Source: Octopus vulgaris
Taxonomy: Eukaryota
DNA length: 64,000 nt
Direction of reading: 5' to 3'
NCBI GenBank assembly: GCA_951406725.2
Contig: OX597817.1
Span: forward strand, 175,770,001 to 175,834,000
Made by a program: the position numbers and the translations under genes. Under the pieces are notes generated by a model that was not told the origin of the DNA, ran no database searches, and was given only the letters and a program-made list of their open reading frames with translations. This document shows, one piece after another, positions 3,537 to 54,960 of this stretch (positions are counted from its first letter, which is position 1; the number at the start of each line of letters is the position of its first letter).

Positions 3537-4020
3537 GGTAAATATTTCGTAAAGGACCCGTTCGTATTTCAGTGTGAAATTATTTTTTCCACGGGTTTTT
3601 TCGAGTGCATTCAACGTATCTCACCTCCAAACCCACTGCAAGCCACTTTCTTCCGGAAAAGAAAGTGGGGAAGGGTTGTTGGGACCTTAGAGATTCCCGG
3701 GAAACTGAATAACCCATTAATGGAGTTTTGTTTTGAGAGTTTCTTTTTCTTCTTTTCCAGGTTATTTCGCATACTGTGACATCGAAATCACACGTAAACG
3801 GCTCCTTTCCCCAGAAAAGGAAAGATTTGGCTGCTATTTCTTGCATGCCCTTCTACCACATAACAGCTATTTCGAGTCCTTTGTTGCAAATAGCTGTTAC
3901 GTGGTAGCAAGGCGTGCTAGAAATAGCAACCAAATCTTTGGATGAGATACATTGAATGCACTCAAAACCAAAACCTATGGAAAAAAAATCATTTCACACC
4001 GAGGTTACGAAATATTTACC
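3537..4020. mobile_element. Palindromic non-autonomous DNA element (MITE) with long imperfect TIRs
   Basis: ggtaaatatttcgtaa (3537) pairs with ttacgaaatatttacc (4020); gagtgcattcaacgtatctca pairs with tgagatacattgaatgcactc; an inner palindrome lies at about 3825-3935 (gctgctatttc...gaaatagcaacc). Confidence 0.65.
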
Positions 4021-4764: not shown

Positions 4765-5842
4765 GGTTTGCGCTTTGTTGGCATTGTTTGTTGACTCATC
4801 AATTTGTAATGCAAAATGTGAATACTAAAGTTTATTACTACAAACATTTTTCTCAATATTAAATGTCATTTCTACAATACATCTGTGAATATTTTCGTTG
4901 GACAGAGGGATCTTATTCATTTCTGTTTCTGCCTCATTTCCCAGCATTGTCTTCACAGTCTTCTTACACACAGGTAGAATGAGTGACTCGCCTAAAGTAT
5001 GAGCTTTCAAATTTTGTGTTATCAATTCTGAAACTTCGTAAGAAGCGATTTGAGCTTTTTCAGTTCCAGCTATCGTCTGGTGTTCTAACAATCGTTTGAA
5101 ATAACTCCTAGGTTTACTTTGTAGATGAGAGTGCTTAGTTTTAAAATGCTTGCTCGGTTTATTAGGAACCAATGATTCGTTTGATAATTTTACATCCACA
5201 TATTAAACATAGCGGCAAAGGATCACAATGTTTCCAGTCCAATAAAAACCAAATCCTAAATAACTTTCGTCGTATTTACGAGTAGACCGCGATTTGGCTC
5301 TCGTACAGAAACTGTTTCCGCTATGTTCACTTCTGCAATCATATTCACCTTTCTGTTTTAGTTATCTATCAATTTGTATGGGTGTATTATTGTATATTTA
5401 TCTGGAACTTTTATCTATCGTTTATTTTTAACAAATGTAACACTATAATAGTCTAAAATTCCATTAAGTGTTAAAGTTTTAGATGAGTGGATAGATATAT
5501 CAGTAATAGGAATATGAATCACGAGAAAACATTGCACTATTTATCATAACACTTCAACCTACAGAACCTATTACTGTTACCGCTACACTACAGCGTAGCC
5601 ATGTTAGAACAAGTTTACAACGTGCATAAAACCTTCTTCCGGACAACCGGCTGTTCCTTGCTGAATATCTTTCTGCTCTTAACATAATAATAATGATCTG
5701 CTGAACTGAGGATATAATGTACTATGAATTCATTTCTTTTTATCATCACAAATATCTACCGAGACCTTAAAATTTCGTGGACACACCTAAGTATGTCTCT
5801 CAGCGCATTGGTGCGCTCGGGCACACCCTCTGTGAACCACTG
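4765..5842 (-). pseudogene. hAT Charlie/Buster-type transposase pseudogene with left TIR
   Basis: The minus strand encodes RKYDESYLGFGF...PLPLCLICG (BED finger), KLSNESLVPNK..KHFKTKH, ASYEVS..HTLGESLILP, IPLSNE and, after a stop, FALQIDEST (catalytic D motif). Frameshifts and stops are present. The terminus cagtggttc at 5842 is flanked by an 8-mer with central TA (atctaaat). Confidence 0.85.
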
Positions 5843-13483: not shown

Positions 13484-14052
13484 TTGATAGAGCTGCACAA
13501 TATATTCACTGAGTAATTTGCAAAAACCTGGATTTGCCCCATGAAAAAAACCAGTGGGAACACAAACCACCTCCAGTGCTTGAAAATGACCACATCTCAC
13601 TCCTCTGGAACTGACAGAAAGATAGATGCAAATAGGCCAGACATCATATTGAAAGACTTCAGACAAAGAACATGCCTCCTCATTGATATGACTGTCACAA
13701 TCGATATAAACGTATCTGTCAAGGCCTACCAAAAACTGAGCAAATATAAAGATCTTCAAATAGAAATCAGCAAAATGTGGAACCTGAAGACTAAAACAAT
13801 ACCTGTTGTCATAGGTGCCCTGAGAATGATAGCAAAAGGGGCTGATTGCTACCTAACTCAGATACCAGGAAACCCAAAAATGGCAGAAATTCAAAAGATA
13901 GTGCTCATGGGAACTGCCCATATCCTACGCAATATACTTTCTATGTAATCTCAATGTTTAAAACAAACATAATTTTCGGTTCTCTTGAGGTCTCTTGGTG
14001 AGACTTGGAGCCAACTTGTACAAATATAAAGCAAAAAATAATAATAATAATA
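13483..14052 (+). mobile_element. 5'-truncated R4/Dong-clade non-LTR retrotransposon (restriction-like endonuclease domain plus 3' UTR)
   Basis: ORF 13541-13948 has RPDIIL...LLIDMTV...KLSKYKDL...IPVVIGALR (REL motif). The upstream frame reads DRAAQYIH..ICK...WEHKPPPVLEND..LLW. The element is flanked on both sides by (TAA)n, the known Dong target. Confidence 0.88.
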
Positions 14053-17960: not shown

Positions 17961-19559
17961 TCTTGGTACTCGACTGAAGAAAGAAAACTCCGAATGACTC
18001 GTCCTTGTCTTCTTTGTATCGTCTATCTGGATGTTTTGTTGTCTCGTTTTTGTATCACCTAACTGTCCGGATGTTTTGCGTTCTTGTCCCATTTTGTATT
18101 TCATATATATATATAATTCTGAGTACACGCAATGTTGGCAGTTGCAATTAGCGTGTTAATGTTCTAGTTAACGAGAAATGGATGCTCTACCAAATGCTCA
18201 CGGACACATACTCGTGGAGATTGATTCTAGTCAGAATAAAAACAATGTTAATAGTTACAGATAGGTTAATGGTAACGCACCCAATGTTTTTAAATGTTCC
18301 CAGCATTAGCTAATTAGATATAATTAAACAATGAAGGAAAAGCAAACATCATCAGTCAATGATTAATATTAATTCATTTTCATACGTGTGCGATAAACAT
18401 CTCCGGAAACATTTCTGATTTCCTTCTGACCTCAGACACCCATTAACATAGTATAAACTATTATGTTTGGAAATGAGGCAAGATTTAATCTGTTAGTTTC
18501 ACACCACCTCTGGTTCTGTTGAAACCAAGCATTTGGATTAGGATACTAGTCTGAGAATACAGACCTTCACACCAGTCTCAAATACTGTGAAAAGGATCAT
18601 CGGCATTGACCTTTCCTCTCTAAATCAATCATTAAAAAGAAAAAGAGGGCAAGATGAACTAAATAACTTAGTTTCACACAGCGGTTTGGTTCCCATCCTG
18701 TGGGTCACAAAGATAAACTCTTCTTTTTGAAATAGTGAATAAAATGTAAAAATGTTCAAGTAAGTCAGAGAGTCGTAAGAGTTACAACATGGCCATTCAC
18801 TGTAAGCAAAATCTAGAATATCCTCCGGACAGAAAAAGGAAAAATTAATGGTTAAGTGCGCTCCGTTGGTATATACTTTTAAAAAAATGCGTAAGATTGG
18901 CGTAAACTCACCAACACCAAATCTCAAGAGGTGGTGGGGGGACAAACAGAGGCAGACACACACACATGCATACGTACATAAGCATGTCCAGACATGTAAC
19001 TATATGTATGAGAACACATACTTAAACGAAACACAAATCTGCACATATACATACATGTTGATATCATTGAATTTCCAATGAATTGGATCAAGGTTAGATC
19101 TTTATTGGCAAGAAATCTTGAGATAAAACTGAATAATGACAGACATACAGACATATGTATTATGTGAAAACCAGAAAAATACTAACAAGCACGCAATTTC
19201 CACATAAACAGTGACGTAGAATGCTTCTACCTAAAATGTAAACAAGGAGGCAGAGGCTTAACATCGATCCATATCCAATCTTGAGAAATTAGGCTTCCCA
19301 AAACCATAAAGGAGAAAGCTAATTCGAAAACTAGATCCAATCTGGCACTGGAACTGTAAAAATCTGTAAAACTTTCCAGGTGTTTATCATTTAAGTAACT
19401 CTATGCATGAGAATACATAAAACAAACAATTCTGCACATACACACAAGAATACCCTGTTGTTGATGTTGAAATTCCAGTGAAGGAACCTTGGATCTAGGT
19501 TAGAAACCGGTTCTTTCTCTATTGGCAAGAAATCTTGAAATAAACTGGATAATGACAGA

Positions 19560-28409: not shown

Positions 28410-28829
28410 ACGTGACCGTAGCCAGTACCGCAACGACTGGCCTCCGTGCTGAGAGCACGTAACAAACACCATCCGAGCGTGGCCGTCCGCCAGCCTCGTC
28501 TGGCACCTGTGTCGGTGGCACATAAAAAACACCATCCGAGCATGGCCGTCTGCTAGCCTCGTCTGGCACCTGTGTCGGTGGCACATAAAAAACACCATCC
28601 GAGCATGGCCGTCTGCCAGCCTCGTCTGGCACCTGTGTCGGTGGCACATAAAATCACCCACTACACTCTCGGAGTGGTTGGCATTAGGAAGGGCATCCAG
28701 CTGTAGAAACACTGCCAGATCTGACTGGCCTGGTGCAGCCTTCGGGCTTGCCAGACCCCAGTTGAACCGTCCAACCCATGCTAGCATGGAAAGCGGACGT
28801 TAAACGATGATGATGATGATGATGATGAT
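28410..28829 (+). mobile_element. Non-autonomous RTE-like retroelement with 63-bp tandem 5' repeats and (GAT)n tail
   Basis: One divergent unit plus three near-identical 62-63-bp units, then ggagtggttggcattaggaagggcatccagc (RTE 5'-UTR-like) and tail gctagcatggaaagcggacgttaaac(gat)n. A nearly identical copy lies at 40926-41286. Confidence 0.8.
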
Positions 28830-29426: not shown

Positions 29427-29468
29427 TTTTAAAATTATAAGTATATGAAAGAATGGAGTTGAACGACT

Positions 29469-29788
29469 TCTATATTGGCGCAACCTCCTCTAAATTAGCC
29501 CAACGGATCTCCAACCATTATTCCACTTTCAGAGATAAGAGAAAGCAACACAACACGGGGCTAAGCAAATTACTCTGGCGTCTGAAGAACAATAACACTA
29601 CGTTCAAGCTCGAATGGTCCATTTTGTCGGTGTCCTTCCCGTTTGATAAAGGCAGAAAATGTTGTGGCATCTGTAATTCCGAACTTTTTCATATTTTGTT
29701 CGCCAAAGTCCCTTTAATAAATACAATCATCGAAAGATCCTACAGGTGTTTACACTGGGAAAGGCACACCTTTCACTCATATAAATAG
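29469..29788 (+). pseudogene. GIY-YIG endonuclease C-terminal fragment of a Penelope-like element
   Basis: [21 protein letters not shown]...TGLSKLLWRLK...LEWSIL...CGICNSE...INT..E...CLH: YIG, catalytic R and E, plus CxxC and CxH. The MELND start comes from the inverted repeat, so the ORF is truncated. Confidence 0.85.
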
Positions 29789-30342
29789 TGACTAATATAG
29801 ATAACCCCTCGATTTCCAAAAAAAATTTTTCCTATACTTCACCCCAATAATCAAAAAGATTTTCTTATATTCCCAATTACTATTATCCATTCTTGTGTTG
29901 CCTCTCACCTCGCCCGATTCTTTCTCCCTTTCGCTATCTACTTTCCTTTCTCTACAGTAAACATAATCGAACACACAGACACAGACCTTTCACCTCACAG
30001 CTGTCAGTTTTCTGACATCTACCCATCCACAAACACAATCACGCATTCAGACACACACATATACACATCAAGACAGTTATATACAGTCACACACACAGGC
30101 ACTCATTCACAAAAGAAATCATTTAAACCCACCATTCTTTTGACCTGCACTCTCTCACCTTACTATTCTTATGCCTCCCTCCTCCTACTTCGTTTGAACC
30201 CTTGAACCTTTAGAACCTTCTAGATTCTTTTACATTCAGCCACTCTGACGTCACTCCTTATAAAGAGACACTCATTATCGCCATGGGCTCCTTGAGAGCG
30301 GTCAGCTAAAAGTTTTTTGTGCATTTTGATGTCGACATAAGT

Positions 30343-30439
30343 TCCTTGATTTTCCTGATGAGATATCTGCATAATGTACTCCTTATTCCTTCAGAATTAG
30401 GAATATGCAGCCTTCGAAACATATGTCGAGAATAAAGGA
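30343..30439 (+). ncRNA. Type I hammerhead ribozyme (Penelope-associated, palindromic loop 3)
   Basis: Helix I tccttgattttc/gagaataaagga; CTGATGA at 30355-30361; stem II ctgcata/tatgcag; GAAA at 30416-30419; C-ATAT-G stem III; predicted GUC cleavage after 30427. Confidence 0.85.
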
Positions 30440-30640
30440 TATTTGTTAACTAGTCGTTCAACTCCATTCTTTCATATACTTATAATTTTAAAATAAACAT
30501 ACAAATTTCTGCATGAAGACATGTAGTCTATGCCCTATGGACGTAGCTTCAACCGTGTTCTTTCTGATGTGAATTTGCTACCCAGGTATCGGTTATCTTT
30601 CGAATTATCCTTAAGATAATTCATTTAATTACTCAAATAC

Positions 30641-32785: not shown

Positions 32786-33140
32786 TATAAAAAGGACTGA
32801 TAATAAAGCCAAAACAAATTGTGAAAATAAAGAACGAAACTTCAGTATTTTGAGTAAGCGAAACGAATATGCTTCTATAATTTGTCCCTTGATTGTATGT
32901 ATTAACTTTACACAAATCTTTAGTTTACAAACATATATTGTTACAGATTCTAGTAATTGCTATAAATTAACCATTGTTTTAGTTTGGGTGCAGCAAGAAA
33001 CCCGAGTAATATTCAGATGTTTCCAGAATATTAATTGAGGTTTGTCATTCATTGCGGTTTGAACACAACAGCTTTGTTTTGACTCACGCCTAGACTTAAT
33101 TCGTAAGAAAAGGAGTGGTAGGTATCTTTAACCGGTCTCC

Positions 33141-33221
33141 TATCAGTTTGGTAGGGTATATCATCATCATCATCATCATCATCGTTTAATGATGATGATG
33201 ATATACCCTACCAAACTGATA
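33141..33221. repeat. Inverted repeat centred on an RTE-type (GAT)n tail
   Basis: tatcagtttggtagggtata(tca)n tcgtttaa (tga)n tataccctaccaaactgata. Confidence 0.95.
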
Positions 33222-33669
33222 TATATATATATCTCAGCTTTTGAATCATGTAGTAATAATACATCGAGTGGCGAGAAACATATACATATCTGTTTCGCTT
33301 ACTCGGAATATCCAAGTCTATTTATGGAGTTTCCCTGGGGTGGGTTTCGTTATCAGATTCACGAGTCTATTTACTTAAACCCCAAGGATCACCAATTTTT
33401 GCAATATGATTGATGCAAGTTGCTTCATTTAGTAGGTGATGTGCTATATTTCTTTTGGTAGCCAAATATATTTTGGTAGGTTGCATTGTTCCTAGAATCA
33501 AATGTAATTGATTAAAATTTCAACGCTTTAAAAATACAAATAAACAAATACTTTGCTTTTATTTTATTTACAGTTTCTAAACTTTCCTTAAATTTCTTAA
33601 AAGTTTTCGACCGCTTTTTCTTATGCTAATGGAGATTGTTACTTTCTTCGGAAATGCAGAAAATTAAAA

Positions 33670-34041
33670 TCTCTATATATATAAACGGCAAAATGTGTGT
33701 GTGTGTGTGTGTGTGTCCTTTATACAAATCCACAATTTTTCAATTAGAGGGCTTGCACTTTCTATGGTCATTTAAAACCGTCCAAGGGTAGTCTTGCACA
33801 TCTTTACATTTCCCCAGTCCCCCCGCAAAGCCATTAAGAAGTCAATAGAAGTGACTTTTTTGTGAATTTTCTATCCAAAACCCAATTAAAATGACCGAAA
33901 CTTGGTACGCCAATTGAATGCCAGCTAGCTGTATGTGATTGGTCGGGGATTTGGACAGTACTTGCGTGTATGTGCGCACGCACGCAGCTGTATATGCATG
34001 CACTAGCACTAAGACCCGGCGTTGCCGGGTCATAGTGCTAG
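33670..34041 (+). mobile_element. Non-autonomous Helitron
   Basis: A|TC-tctatatatataaa 5' end; 3' hairpin gacccggc-gtt-gccgggtc followed by CTAG|T. Confidence 0.8.
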
Positions 34042-34344
34042 TATATTATAATTACTGAGAGATTAACTTTCATTAATGACATAAACCAGCAATCCCCAAC
34101 GTTTTTTTTATCTTTTTTAACCAGGAACCGATATCATGCAAGACGAGAAGACAATGCACTTAACAAAACACAACAAAATCATTACATATATAATGCAAAA
34201 AATATCTTGCAGACTACGGTAGTCAAGAACAGAAATAATTTCTTTTTTTAAGTTTATTTTCTATGCAAGCCATTGGTCAGGATTAGGGACCCTGATGCAA
34301 ACAACTGTCGTGGCTTCAGTATTTCAGTTGCATTTTCACAAACC

Positions 34345-34528
34345 AACTCGCCCGAGACCTAACATGGTCCTCTCATAGAAACTTCCCGTTTTAAATATGA
34401 TCTACCAAAATTACATACTAATTTATGTCCTAAGCACTAGCTTCATAAAGATAGAGTTATTTTACTAGGTTCTTCATTGTTCACAAAATTGGTGATACTT
34501 TTTAGCAGAAATATGGTAACAAAAGGGT
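34345..34528 (-). mobile_element. piggyBac-like MITE family copy (also 56804-57007 and 61640-61824)
   Basis: Three diverged copies share gaagaa(t/c)(t/c)tagtaaaataact and termini of the type aaccc(t/a)ttgttacc ... tatcaaaag(gg). Confidence 0.55.
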
Positions 34529-35339
34529 TGAGAGGTTTTCCCCCATTGCATATTAACTGGAAATAAGATTTTGAATCAATGATAAGTAAACAAATCGGCT
34601 TTAATTTCTTCGCAATATGAAACATCCGAGTTGAAAATCACAACAAAATGTAAATTAACATATTTCAGAATAGCTATCTTCGTCTTCTCTAAGAGAGTTA
34701 TTTCGTCTTTGAGATAGAGAGAGAAAGAGAGATTTCGTCTTCTCTGAGATACAGGAAAAGAGAGATTGACAAACAGTAATTAATATAAATTATTTACGAA
34801 GTCACTTCCACAAAAGGGTTAAGAGCAAATCAATGAAAAAAAAAACACGTTGCGTGTTTAAAAGAGGACTACCCAGAAAAACAGATGTTGCCGAAGTCGA
34901 ATGTCATAGAATCAATGTTATCTTAGAGACGGATCTATAGGAAAAAATTCACATGCATCACATGACAAGCTATACGATGACATATCAGATCCATAAACAA
35001 GAGCCATACACATAAAATAAAAATCATCCACATGCACAACGCTTTTTTAAGTTTGACATGTGTTAAGTTAAGCAAGAACATTATTATGAATGTTTATTTA
35101 TTGCAGTCCCACTCGTGTTTGTTTATCATGGGTGAGACTTCAATAAACACGTCTTGCAGCCTTTGAAACACAATGAAGGAGGAATAAGTAGTATATGTAG
35201 TTAAGCGGAGCTTAAGTAAACACCAAGTTGAACCAATTAGTTGATTCATTAGAAATATTTCTTTTTACATTTTTTAATCAACGTGTGTTTAAAGTACCGT
35301 GAAGAAAAAAAGCATTTAACGTTTTCCAAACGAAACATA

Positions 35340-37936: not shown

Positions 37937-38348
37937 GTTTAGGTGGACTGATCCAATGACAGTGAAGCGTCGTAGATACACGCATAAGGCAATATGGATG
38001 ACAGGGCCAAACCCAATAAACCTCAAAACTGATTAGCTGCTACACAATCCACAAGGACATCAACGGGTTCTAAAGGACAAAAACAAAAGCGTTTTCGGTC
38101 CTTGTGATAGGTAAAAGCAACAGCTTTCAGTCAAAGCATAAACTGACAAGAAGTATTAGAAAGGCAAATTTTAGCTGAGCGAACTTATAACAACGAGAAC
38201 TAAACTGTTTTACCCACAAAGGTATAATAAGCTTCCCAAAACGGAAAACAAACCAACGACTTAACGATCAAGATTCCTATGGTCTAACCACAAAGCTAGG
38301 CACCTACCAGAGCAAGTTAGGTTGTACAGTTTGACACAACATGGAGAG

Positions 38349-38643
38349 CGACAGCTGCGGGGTACGAGTGACTAACTATTGCAAAATGAACAAAAGTTAG
38401 TTAATAATGGAAGTAGTGGAATAAGATACAGTTTTGCAGACATAAACTAACATTCGCTCGAAATCATCATCATCATCATCATCATTTAGCGTGGAGAACG
38501 GACGCTAAATGATGATGATGATGATGATGATTTCGAGCGAATGTTAGTTTATGTCTGCAAAACTATCTTATTCCACTACTTCCATTATTAACTAACTTTT
38601 GTTCATTTTGCAATAGTTAGTCACTCGTACCCCGCAGCTGTCG
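38349..38643. repeat. Near-perfect 143-bp-arm palindrome with 9-nt loop centred on an RTE-type tail
   Basis: Arms 38349-38492 and 38502-38643 differ by a single 2-bp indel as read by eye; loop ggagaacgg. Confidence 0.97.
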
Positions 38644-40930: not shown

Positions 40931-41286
40931 GAGCGTGGCCGTCCGCCAGCCTCGTCTGGCACCTGTGTCGGTGACACATAAGAAAACACCATCCGAGCGT
41001 GGCCGTCTGCCAGCCTCGTCTGGCACCTGTGTCGGTGGCACATAAAAAACACCATCCGAGCGTGGCCGTCTGCCAGCCTCGTCTGGCACCTGTGTCGGTG
41101 GCACATAAAATCACCCACTACACTCTCGGAGTGGTTGGCGTTAGGAAGGGCATCCAGCTGTAGAAACACTGCCACATCTGACTGACCTGGTGCAGCCTTC
41201 GGGCTTCCCAGACCCCAGTTGAACCGTCCAACCCATGCTAGCATGGAAAGCGGACGTTAAACGATGATGATGATGATGATGATGAT
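40926..41286 (+). mobile_element. Non-autonomous RTE-like retroelement with three 63-bp repeats and (GAT)n tail
   Basis: Nearly identical to 28467-28829. Confidence 0.85.
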
Positions 41287-41851: not shown

Positions 41852-42552
41852 GTGCTGGTGGCACGTAAACGCAACCATTATACTCTTAGAGTGGTTGGTG
41901 TCAGGAAGAGAATCCAGTCATAGAAAACCAGGCCAAATCAAACTGAAATCTGGTGCAGCTTTCCAGCCATGCCAGTATGGACAACAGATGTTAAATGATG
42001 ATGATGATGCGATACACATATATACATACACACACACACATCTGATTCCTTCTCTCCCTCTCTCTCTTGGTCACTGCTTCTTCTCTGATTCCTTCTCTCC
42101 CTCTCTCTCTCGGTCACTGCTTCTGTCCTCGCCTTCCACCCTCCTTGGCCCCTTCTCTCTCTTACCCTCTTGCGACTTGCTGCCTCAGCCATTCTGTTGC
42201 CATCGGCCGCTTGTTCAACATGTGTCTTATCACCAAAAAGGTAATTATTTTTCCACGCTTGCTGATATTGTTTTTGTGTCTCTCTTTTTGTCTCAAAGCC
42301 GTAGGGCGCCTGTGTCATCCTTGTTTTTAACCGTTATTGTCTCCAAAAAAGATTTTTCGTTTCATGTTCGTCTCTCTTGCGTTGCATTCTTTCCTTCTGT
42401 GGCTGGCTGCTTCAGAGCGGATCTCAGAATTAAACAGCCGAAATCTGCGATGAGGGATCAGTTTCTGACTGAAGAATGAAGGCTTTGAATGACCCATTTG
42501 TCTTTTTGTTCGTCCCTTCGTGTATTTCACGTTATTTATTTATGTAAAGGTT

Positions 42553-42595
<43 letters not shown>

Positions 42596-42712
42596 TATAA
42601 ATGCACATGTATACATATATACACACATATACAAGTATATTCATTCATATGGATCTTTATCTGTGAATATATACATACTAGTATATAAGCGTAAATAAGA
42701 ATATGTGTATAT

Positions 42713-46098: not shown

Positions 46099-46142
<44 letters not shown>

Positions 46143-46146
<4 letters not shown>

Positions 46147-46850
46147 GTAGGGGGTAGCAATTTTCTTCGATAATAGGGCCCCTGGAAGTGATCCTTATAT
46201 ATAGCCAAGGGAAATAACCCATTCATTTTCCTAAATTATTTGGTAAAAATGAAATTGAGTATGCTTATTTCTTAGTATTTGAACTGTCAGAGTTATTTTC
46301 ACAATTTATCCAGTACAACACTTAAACAAGTAAATAGTATTCTCCTAAACAATAGATCCACTTATCTCAGTTAGTGACTTATTCATGAATATACCAACAC
46401 TAGTGTCACGAGGGTAATATTCTTTGGGAACGCACAAAAGCCCTTTTCAGAGTTATTTACTTTGAATTGTTATTATCTCATAGCCTGTTATTATGTAACA
46501 TGCTTCACTATTTTAGTATACATACCTTAATAATATTTCCTCCTATATTCTATATACTCTGGGACCTCATCAAAGCCCTTTCCAGGGCTACCCTATCTGA
46601 ATTCTTACTATCACGTAACTAATTTCATGTAATTACATAACTGACTTCACAATGTGAGTATTCATAACTCATTGGGAATTCTTAAAAACAAAATCCTGTG
46701 TAAGACAGTTTGGTTTACTCTGTAAATGCACGAAAACCGTTTTAAGGGCTACATACTTTGTATTGTTGTTATAGGATTAGCAAAACAATTATGAGAATGG
46801 AACCAAGGGATAAGCTTCAGTTTCGCAGGAATTACCGGGTATGTCAGCTG
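46143..46850 (+). mobile_element. Helitron-like non-autonomous repeat
   Basis: Shares a segment with 30820-30910 and ends cgcaggaattaccgggtatgtcagct, reminiscent of Helitron 3' ends. Confidence 0.4.
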
Positions 46851-48982: not shown

Positions 48983-49310
48983 GCTGGCTCAAGGAGGCAA
49001 GCTGACAGAATTGTTAGTATGCCAAGTATATATATATATATATATATATATTAGGTAGGGGGTAGCAATTTTCTTCGATAATAGGGCCCCTGGAAGTGAT
49101 CCTTATATATATATGCTTAATGGTATTTCATTTGTCACCACATTCTGAGTTCAAATTCAGCTGAGATCAAATTTGCCTTTCATCATTTTGGGGTTGGTGA
49201 AATAAATACCAGTTACACACTTGAGTTGATTTAACCAACTTTACCCCTCCCCCAAAATTTCAGGCCTTGAGCCTAGAGTAGAAAGGATTATTATTATTAT
49301 TATTATTACA
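47323..49310 (+). mobile_element. Head-to-tail cluster of at least six Nin/Deu-type SINEs
   Basis: Copies start near 47323, 47911, 48320, 48560 (truncated), 48727 and 48992; most end in gaaaggat(tat)n. Confidence 0.85.
47544..48303 (+). mobile_element. Helentron/DINE-like non-autonomous element with nested SINE
   Basis: 5' tacctccacc-ttagcgaa-ggtggaggta hairpin, ggatttggatgaaacttt motif, and 3' gcggaggtttgtgctgagtgctcttct subterminal inverted repeat. Confidence 0.65.
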
Positions 49311-49549: not shown

Positions 49550-50128
49550 TTCTTCTACTTGGCTGTGGCCATGCTGGAACACCACCTTAATGGGTTTTAG
49601 TTGAAGAAATCAACCCCAGGACTTATTCTTTGTTAGTCTCATACTTATTCCATGGGCCTCTTTTGCTGAACTGCCAAGTTACAAGGACATAAACACACCA
49701 GCATTGGTTATCAAGCGAGGGGGATGGAACACACACATACACATAAATATATACAAGTGTGTGTAAATATATATATAGAAAATGTGTACTTACATATAAG
49801 AGAACAAAGTGTAAGTATGCCGCTATACAAAATGGGACAAGAATGCAAAACATCCAGACAACTAGGTGATACAGCCGAAATACAAGGCTAGCAATATGAT
49901 GAACAAACCTGTGTCCATAAACCTTTGAACAGGTGAAATCATCAACTTCCCTTTGCTGGCATGGCATCAGGCTTCTTTCAGTTTCCTTCTATTAAATCCA
50001 CTCAAAAGACTTTGGTCAACTAAGACTATAATAAAAGGTATTTGCCCAAGGTGCCACGCAGTGGGACTGAACCCGGAACCATGTGGTTGGGAAGTAAGCT
50101 TCTTACCACACAGCTATACCTGTGCCTA
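49550..50128 (-). mobile_element. CORE-like SINE interrupted by a Penelope-like fragment
   Basis: Tail at 49550-49740 and head at 49968-50128; the insert atacaaaatgggacaagaatgcaaaacatccagac matches 18050-18100 (reverse complement) and 54345. Confidence 0.7.
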
Positions 50129-54275: not shown

Positions 54276-54321
54276 AGAAATATGTACTTACATATCAGAC
54301 CAAAAGGGTACGGGCGCCGCT

Positions 54322-54950
54322 ATATATATGTATATGTAAAAAAATACAAACTGGGACAAGAACACAAAACATTTAGAAGACGATACAAAAAACTTGGACG
54401 GGACATTCAAATCCTTCAATCTTCAGTCAAGAACCGGATCATCCTCGCAATTTCGGCTGATTAATCTTGAGATCGCTCTGATCTGGCCAGCCCCAAGGAA
54501 AAACTAAGCTACGAGCATTAGATTTCTTGGAAAAAGGATCGAATGAATACGAAACAAGGACAGAAAAACGGACAATGCCGAAAAAGGCATTTTTTTTCCA
54601 AATACGCCAGCTAAACTAAGTTGTACTGTCTATAGTCGTAAGACACCCGCTGTTTTTGTCCTGTTATTACTATTATTGCTTTTTGTATTTATATTCGTGT
54701 GGCATCGTCCGTTTTTCTGTCCCTGTTTTGTATACAGTCGATCCTTTTAACAAGAAATCTAATGCTCGTAGCTCAGTTTTTCCTTGGGGCTGGCCGGATC
54801 GGAACAATCTCAAGATTAATGAGCTGAAATTGCGAGGATGATCTGGTTCTTGACTGAAGATTGAAGGCTTCGAACGTCCCATCCGTATTTTTTGTATCGT
54901 CTTCTAAATGTTTTGCGTTCTTGTCCCAGTTTGTATCTTTTTACATATAC

Positions 54951-54960
<10 letters not shown>
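54322..54960. mobile_element. Inverted pair of ~260-bp Penelope-like pseudo-LTRs within (TA)n
   Basis: 54322-54580 and 54700-54960 are diverged reverse complements; each has ctgaagattgaagg.tt.gaa.gtccc; TA tracts lie on both sides. Confidence 0.75.

Follow-up and report, generated by a model that had tools for sequence, protein, structure and literature searches.

A 69-bp insertion that forms a perfect hairpin in the octopus genome: likely the remains of a retrotransposon insertion that aborted and was completed through snap-back DNA synthesis

How does a stretch of unique host DNA come to be mirrored around the last few bases of a retrotransposon? The question is raised by 81 bases (33141–33221) of a 64,000-nt stretch of the Octopus vulgaris genome (contig OX597817.1, positions 175,770,001 to 175,834,000; hereafter the window), which is repeat-rich and non-coding with a GC content of ∼37% and whose repeats we take to resemble octopus elements. 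We propose that this hairpin is a 69-bp insertion into a short TA tract, likely left behind when insertion of a retrotransposon was aborted and then completed by snap-back DNA synthesis.

Positions 33141–33173 form a perfect 33-bp stem with 33189–33221 around a loop of 15 nt, and 20 bp of the stem are unique (table 1). An earlier reading, made from the sequence only, had described a 20-bp flank plus a CAT tract mirrored around an element end. The mirrored flank is confirmed in both coordinates and sequence, but the tract is mirrored for four units and not in full, since the tail comprises eight units in the left tract and four in the right (ATG) tract. Folding of the hairpin has a z of −14.5, with 0/200 shuffled sequences equally stable. 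Allowing up to three mismatches, the 20-nt arm occurs at two places in 64 kb, 33141–33160 on the plus strand and 33202–33221 on the minus strand (shuffle mean 0.01), and it has no further copy in the window. The 81-bp scar bears no sign of function and none is implied for the hairpin. The best match to a microRNA family in Rfam, mir-5365, reaches 51 bits where the gathering score is 70 and reflects the hairpin shape, and all 44 Rfam matches fall under the gathering score.

Table 1. Parts of the hairpin, reference copies of the element and the second hairpin, in coordinates of the window
Feature	Position	Strand	Basis or remark
Last 256 nt of a young copy with an ATG tail, taken as reference for the element end	28574–28829	+	tail at 28806–28829
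Flank native to the target, on the 3′ side of the minus-strand insertion; putative snap-back template	33141–33159	+	33141–33153 on the bridging contig of organism C; 33154–33156 from coordinates
What is left of the TA target tract on the left side, overlapping the tail repeat at its end; likely priming site	33157–33161	+	sequence; priming conditional on the proposed mechanism
(GAT)8 retroelement tail, 24 nt	33160–33183	-	same length as the tails at 28806–28829 and 41263–41286
Sole remaining element-specific bases, TTAAAC on the minus strand; predicted fold-back point at 33189	33184–33189	-	identical to the young copies
Four tail units in inverted copy; predicted start of snap-back synthesis	33189–33201	+	sequence
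Inverted copy of the 20-nt flank; final ATA (33219–33221) common with the TA tract	33202–33221	-	joined to the right flank in X1, X3 and X19; absent from X13
Segment directly right of the inverted flank copy	33222–33232	+	sequence; 7 nt of the segment on the contig of organism C
Second hairpin	38349–38643	+	arms of 143 bp that differ by one 2-bp indel, around a 9-nt loop; 7.7 units in either tail; plus-strand element end
Last 256 nt of the second young copy with an ATG tail	41031–41286	+	tail at 41263–41286

The centre of the hairpin had been read as the reverse complement of a retroelement end, and this holds to the base. Read on the plus strand, 33160–33183 is (ATC)8, followed by GTTTAA at 33184–33189, and this added sequence matches the last 30 nt of the two young ATG-tailed copies, which end at 28829 and 41286, at 30/30 positions. 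The element 3′ end and its tail are attached to the native left flank at 33141–33189. Over their last 350 nt the two young copies differ from each other in 10 of 351 columns. As a caveat, the connection between insert and element depends on just six element-specific bases; the background rate of this 6-mer is 0.05% of window positions. The 3′ end of the tailed element at 41200–41262 is predicted to form a nested stem-loop around a 14-nt palindrome, with a z of only −0.5.

Truncated copies in the window bear (GAT)n 3′ tails, a feature not unique to RTE elements; lepidopteran RTEs are reported to bear (TGA)n tails (PMC2887409), and active RTE families have been described in octopus (PMC9115989, PMC13282606). 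Among the 106 of 126 open reading frames that were scanned (at least 75 aa, complexity-filtered), none gave a reverse-transcriptase, endonuclease or other Pfam match at the cut-off. Words from the element end were not found by full-text search or in the readable supplements; the RTE-2_OV sequence of the octopus paper may bear on the clade. The element of the 33141 insertion works like one inserted by snap-back TPRT, with RTE as the candidate label.

Which arm is new can be told from relatives. The site was compared over 32800–35300 with contigs of four runs (X1, X3, X13 and X19) out of 24; the comparison masked 33154–33202, so that the hairpin centre is visible in no contig and none spans the whole structure. 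In three of the four runs, which come from three studies and carry three organism labels, contigs run from the right arm into the right flank: with 13 nt of arm in X1 (organism A, which may be the window's own source sample), 19 nt in X3 (organism B) and 15 nt in X19 (organism D). Divergence from the window is low in organisms B and D (14/2121 and 13/1917 aligned bases), while X13 (organism C) differs at 59/787 bases, or 7.5%. A single contig of organism C carries the pieces 32811–33153 (343 letters) and 33226–33669 (444 letters) with 3 letters between them, versus 72 in the window; both the joint and the bridging letters are read from coordinates, the letters not being printed, and come from one outgroup contig of one run. 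Three letters is the length needed by 33154–33156 followed by a 7-nt TA tract, again as judged from coordinates. TA bases flank the insert on both sides, and the length of the tract differs between organisms.

The insert is absent from the orthologous site in this one outgroup, and the empty site that the sequence-only reading had proposed to look for is therefore available. Because the contig of organism C bridges the site with 3 letters instead of 72, the left arm is native and the tail, the centre and the right arm were added, in agreement with the earlier proposal of a minus-strand element whose cDNA folded back and copied the flank. We interpret the difference as a gain of 69 bp at a short TA tract. 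Loss in organism C is less likely: had an older palindrome been lost there, the chance of a perfect 33/33 stem at 7.5% divergence would be 0.08, and that of a 20/20 stem 0.21. If organism C is ancestral, the event predates the split of A, B and D and postdates their split from C. The hairpin is inherited, common to close relatives and oriented by the empty site. The opposite orientation, with the element on the plus strand and the right arm native, is permitted by the sequence with one mismatch; it was rejected, as it predicts a piece starting at about 33201–33203 and none is seen in the contig of organism C.

From the observed anatomy and the observed empty site we infer nicking, reverse transcription, a fold and synthesis by a polymerase. 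The element endonuclease would nick the TA tract, and the freed 3′ end would prime reverse transcription on the ATG tail, which would halt ∼6 nt beyond it. The free cDNA end would then pair over 1–2 bp with a tail unit of its own strand (A:T, or AT:AT after one untemplated T), from where a DNA polymerase, likely polymerase theta, would copy back via four tail units into 20 nt of flank. The copy would detach at ATA and anneal to the TA overhang over the break, and fill-in would fix both strands in the germline. The element would be almost absent from the product because the copy runs back through the tail into the 3′ flank after ∼30 nt of cDNA. A copy that ends where ATA matches the TA tract is a signature of snap-back SD-MMEJ as described in PMC5728401.

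Simulation of every cDNA stop point between 0 and 20 nt beyond the tail, in all priming registers and both with and without one untemplated base, gave exact products of the right length (81 bases) only from a cDNA ending in GTTTAA with A:T (1 bp) or AT:AT (2 bp) priming. The sequence-only reading had instead invoked CG/CG priming followed by CpG decay. Its fold-back of the cDNA and copying of the flank stand, but its priming step needs a C-to-T change and the loss of four units, given that in simulation the CG/CG route (2–3 bp pairing) yields a product with one mismatch and four ATG units too many; under a weaker CG variant the length is correct and one mismatch remains. One-base priming is itself weak, which is a caveat on the A:T model. 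Since CG pairing is stronger and CpG decay is plausible (3/21 CpG sites differ between the two young copies), we only slightly favour A:T over CG priming.

A second hairpin of the same layout, also described in the earlier reading, does exist at 38349–38643. It carries a different element-end variant, on the plus strand, and is therefore a separate event, as had been suggested. GAGCGA stands at its outer left junction (38346–38351) and again at 38535–38540, 3 nt past the tail, and overlaps the arm by CGA at 38349–38351 (a 3-nt junction match). A junction match of this kind was found at 0.28% of 200,000 random junctions, and GAGCGA is a candidate 6-bp target duplication. The cDNA of this event appears to stop at the centre of the 14-nt palindrome known from 41200–41262. 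In both events the fold-back lies at most 30 nt from the tail, the far side is without element sequence and the copy passes from tail to flank without a seam. Pairing at the fold (1–2 bp) and microhomology at the far junction (ATA at 33219–33221, CGA at 38349–38351) are all very short.

Several other histories could leave such a stretch. A short tailed insertion may have come first, and a later double-strand break just inside it may have been repaired by snap-back end joining that took out what remained of the element. This would lead to an identical product; according to PMC5728401, such repair can proceed without retrotransposition, and tailed ends are dense in the window (6 in 64 kb). We nevertheless consider this two-step origin improbable, as the repair must delete the element exactly to the 5′ target boundary yet spare the TA tract, the right flank is intact relative to organism C from 33226 on, and both events fold close to the tail with no element on the far side. 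The synthesis might instead have begun from the other end of the break, the upstream 3′ end copying the flank in trans and then the RNA tail (in a manner resembling twin priming), after which the antisense copies anneal by A:T. This predicts the same sequence, accounts for the unequal tails of eight and four units, and recalls L1 inverted duplications, which are reported mostly on the reciprocal end (bioRxiv 2024.12.14.628481). It requires that priming took place twice and that the template jump fell exactly on the nick, yet the tail–flank copy is seamless in both events, and we regard it as quite unlikely.

Nor does it seem credible, except with very low probability, that no retroelement took part and that a triplet tract underwent template switching to give a quasi-palindrome, its 6-nt element match being due to chance. 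A scan of metagenomes did return one locus with the same centre, L001:391–435 (CAT/TTAAAC/GAT), with an 8-bp mirrored flank. It is not octopus-like and lies in a 274-aa open frame with a Ser-run and an Asp-run, apparently bacterial and without a Pfam match, and forms a hairpin of independent origin within coding DNA; the centre can therefore arise without the octopus element, which counts against our main reading. The tract at 33141–33221 was, however, inserted, because the 3 letters of organism C leave no room for a CAT tract, and its tail length and end agree throughout with the young copies against the low 6-mer background. In addition, 0/7 viral head-to-head CAT/ATG loci examined as a control had a mirrored flank of more than 3 bp, so that the head-to-head arrangement alone does not entail mirrored flanks. 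The element-end pattern gave 0 loci in the viral contigs and 0 in the prokaryote contigs scanned. A MITE with 20–33-bp terminal repeats inserted at TA would explain the TA at both ends, one of which adjoins the TA tract, but this idea is largely refuted: one “terminal repeat” belongs to the native DNA and occurs in organism C without its partner, which argues against Tc1-mariner elements as well, and the arm has no other copy in the 64-kb window. An assembly or long-read fold-back artefact is barely conceivable. Although no contig spans the whole structure, the join between right arm and right flank recurs in contigs of three runs with three organism labels, and an artefact would add no element tail. 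Snap-back synthesis from an aborted retrotransposon insertion accordingly remains our preferred explanation.

The proposal that this mechanism is recurrent gains from the second independent event of the same layout, but its frequency comes from 2/6 tailed ends in one selected window. There are 11 ATG/CAT tracts of at least three units, comprising four in the two events, four plain element ends and three without an element end. A mirrored flank is found at 2/6 tailed ends in the window (95% interval 4–78%) versus 562/104,254 background positions; the six exclude four older copies whose tail has decayed or been lost, and the fraction becomes 2/10 if these are included. If the rate were 0.3%, as in L1, the probability of one more event among five ends would be 1.5%, yet about 5 in 40,000 windows would hold two. 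A high snap-back rate is suggested by these counts.

Other repeats of the window also have inverted or TA-bounded structures. A 5′-truncated Penelope-like fragment (29428–30640) lies between TA tracts, with a weak GIY-YIG match and an 82% match to an Octopus-named protein from 29468 on; within it, what we take to be a hammerhead-core-like motif at 30355–30420 has no Rfam match. Its first 41 bp (29428–29468) are a perfect inverted copy of 30452–30492, with TAT common at the TA junction. This 41-bp repeat was considered as a third flank-copying event, as the homolog aligns only from the inner edge of the arm, and was rejected: because TA tracts bound 29428–30640, the mirror is probably internal to the element, a product of cDNA snap-back within it, and mirrors of this type are known in Penelope elements (PMC3846280).

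Inverted repeats of 259 bp (91%) between TA tracts at 54321–54959 may be a MITE or inverted Penelope terminal repeats, and have partial copies at 42390–42599, 17964–18115 and 49825–49853. The segment 33724–34059 is a very high-copy repeat, found in thousands of contigs of organisms A, B and D and including a 41-bp hairpin at 34002–34042; it is likely a second lineage-specific insertion near the hairpin studied here, since the contig of organism C joins 33669 to 34042. Near-identical copies of ∼70 bp, each between TA tracts, occur at 46126–46200 and 49034–49110, and partial matches to the right end of the hairpin at 46126 and 49034 were dismissed as copies of the arm because they belong to this different short repeat. 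The arms of 52 bp (88%) around a 15-nt loop at 3821–3939 have partial matches elsewhere that suggest a small repeat family and not snap-back. Open-frame fragments at 13517–13948 and 4825–5202, which presumably resemble the C-terminus of a LINE with restriction-like endonuclease and a hAT-type transposase, have no Pfam match.

For insertions made by R2 protein (PRINT; PMC11371274, PMC11331408), cDNA snap-back ahead of 5′ junction formation has been given a category of its own: the 3′ end of the cDNA primes further synthesis either on the cDNA or on target DNA close by. Similarly, the 33141 hairpin has an antisense copy of cDNA and nearby target at its 5′ junction, as a 33-bp perfect stem. The R2-protein insertions in those reports are engineered, made in cultured human cells and often of full-length cDNA, whereas the octopus event is natural, inherited and would have involved ∼30 nt of cDNA. 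Somatic L1 insertions are reported to include short foldback duplications upstream of the target at 0.3% (3 events, plus 1 combined case; PMC10191854), and experimental and cancer L1 sites to have inverted duplications on the reciprocal end, primed by 2 bp (TA/AT), as well as large foldbacks at the primary one (bioRxiv 2024.12.14.628481). Like the L1 foldbacks, the octopus structure combines a short inverted target duplication, putative small-hairpin priming over ∼2 bp (TA/AT) and a candidate target duplication. As described in these sources, L1 foldbacks are somatic or experimental, rare and, where small, on the upstream side, in contrast to a putative primer-side fold that mirrors the tail, entered the germline and is common to relatives.

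Snap-back SD-MMEJ, which has been linked to polymerase theta and is often TA/AT-primed, likewise proceeds by a short primer repeat, limited synthesis, release and annealing at a new microhomology to give a new inverted repeat (PMC5728401). Motifs in that assay lie within tens of bases of the break, whereas the octopus break end would have a reverse-transcribed tail and the copies are long (33 and 143 nt). Inverted repeats of Penelope-like elements have also been attributed to self-priming of a retroelement (PMC3846280), but these mirror their own terminal sequence routinely, while the 33141 event mirrors host flank next to an ATG-tailed element. In its very short 3′ end, its TGA/ATG tail and its candidate target duplication, the insert resembles the 5′-truncated RTE ends reported to seed (TGA)n microsatellites (PMC2887409), an article whose main text does not contain the words “inverted”, “palindrome” or “hairpin”. 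Twin priming or switching, as presented in bioRxiv 2024.08.27.596794, inverts the element body, unlike the octopus event, in which the tail and flank are inverted. In the literature outside subscription papers and Repbase, we found tail-centred mirrors of a flank described neither for octopus nor for RTE elements.

The snap-back mechanism is known in kind; what is new is an ultra-short, primer-side variant that mirrors the tail together with host flank and is inherited. The self-priming free cDNA end, an intermediate known from laboratory and cancer non-LTR insertions, would here be fixed in a natural germline, with the empty site orienting the event. Such events can be harvested by pattern; a single genome scan would show, for many natural intermediates, where the cDNA stopped, what homology primed the fold and how long the copy is, which bears on how the 5′ junction of a LINE insertion forms. 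The potentially surprising part is the rate of snap-back. It is conceivable, though doubtful, that ATG-tailed retrotransposition in the octopus germline commonly ends in snap-back (several percent of insertions versus ∼0.3% in human L1) and that snap-back has left thousands of near-element-free, locus-specific perfect hairpins of 60–300 bp that repeat annotation misses and that could be raw material for microRNA precursors or RNA-editing substrates. Any link of such hairpins to the microRNA gains and A-to-I editing of cephalopods is speculative. If the rate is high, snap-back would be an unannotated, steady source of unique-sequence hairpins in octopus genomes.
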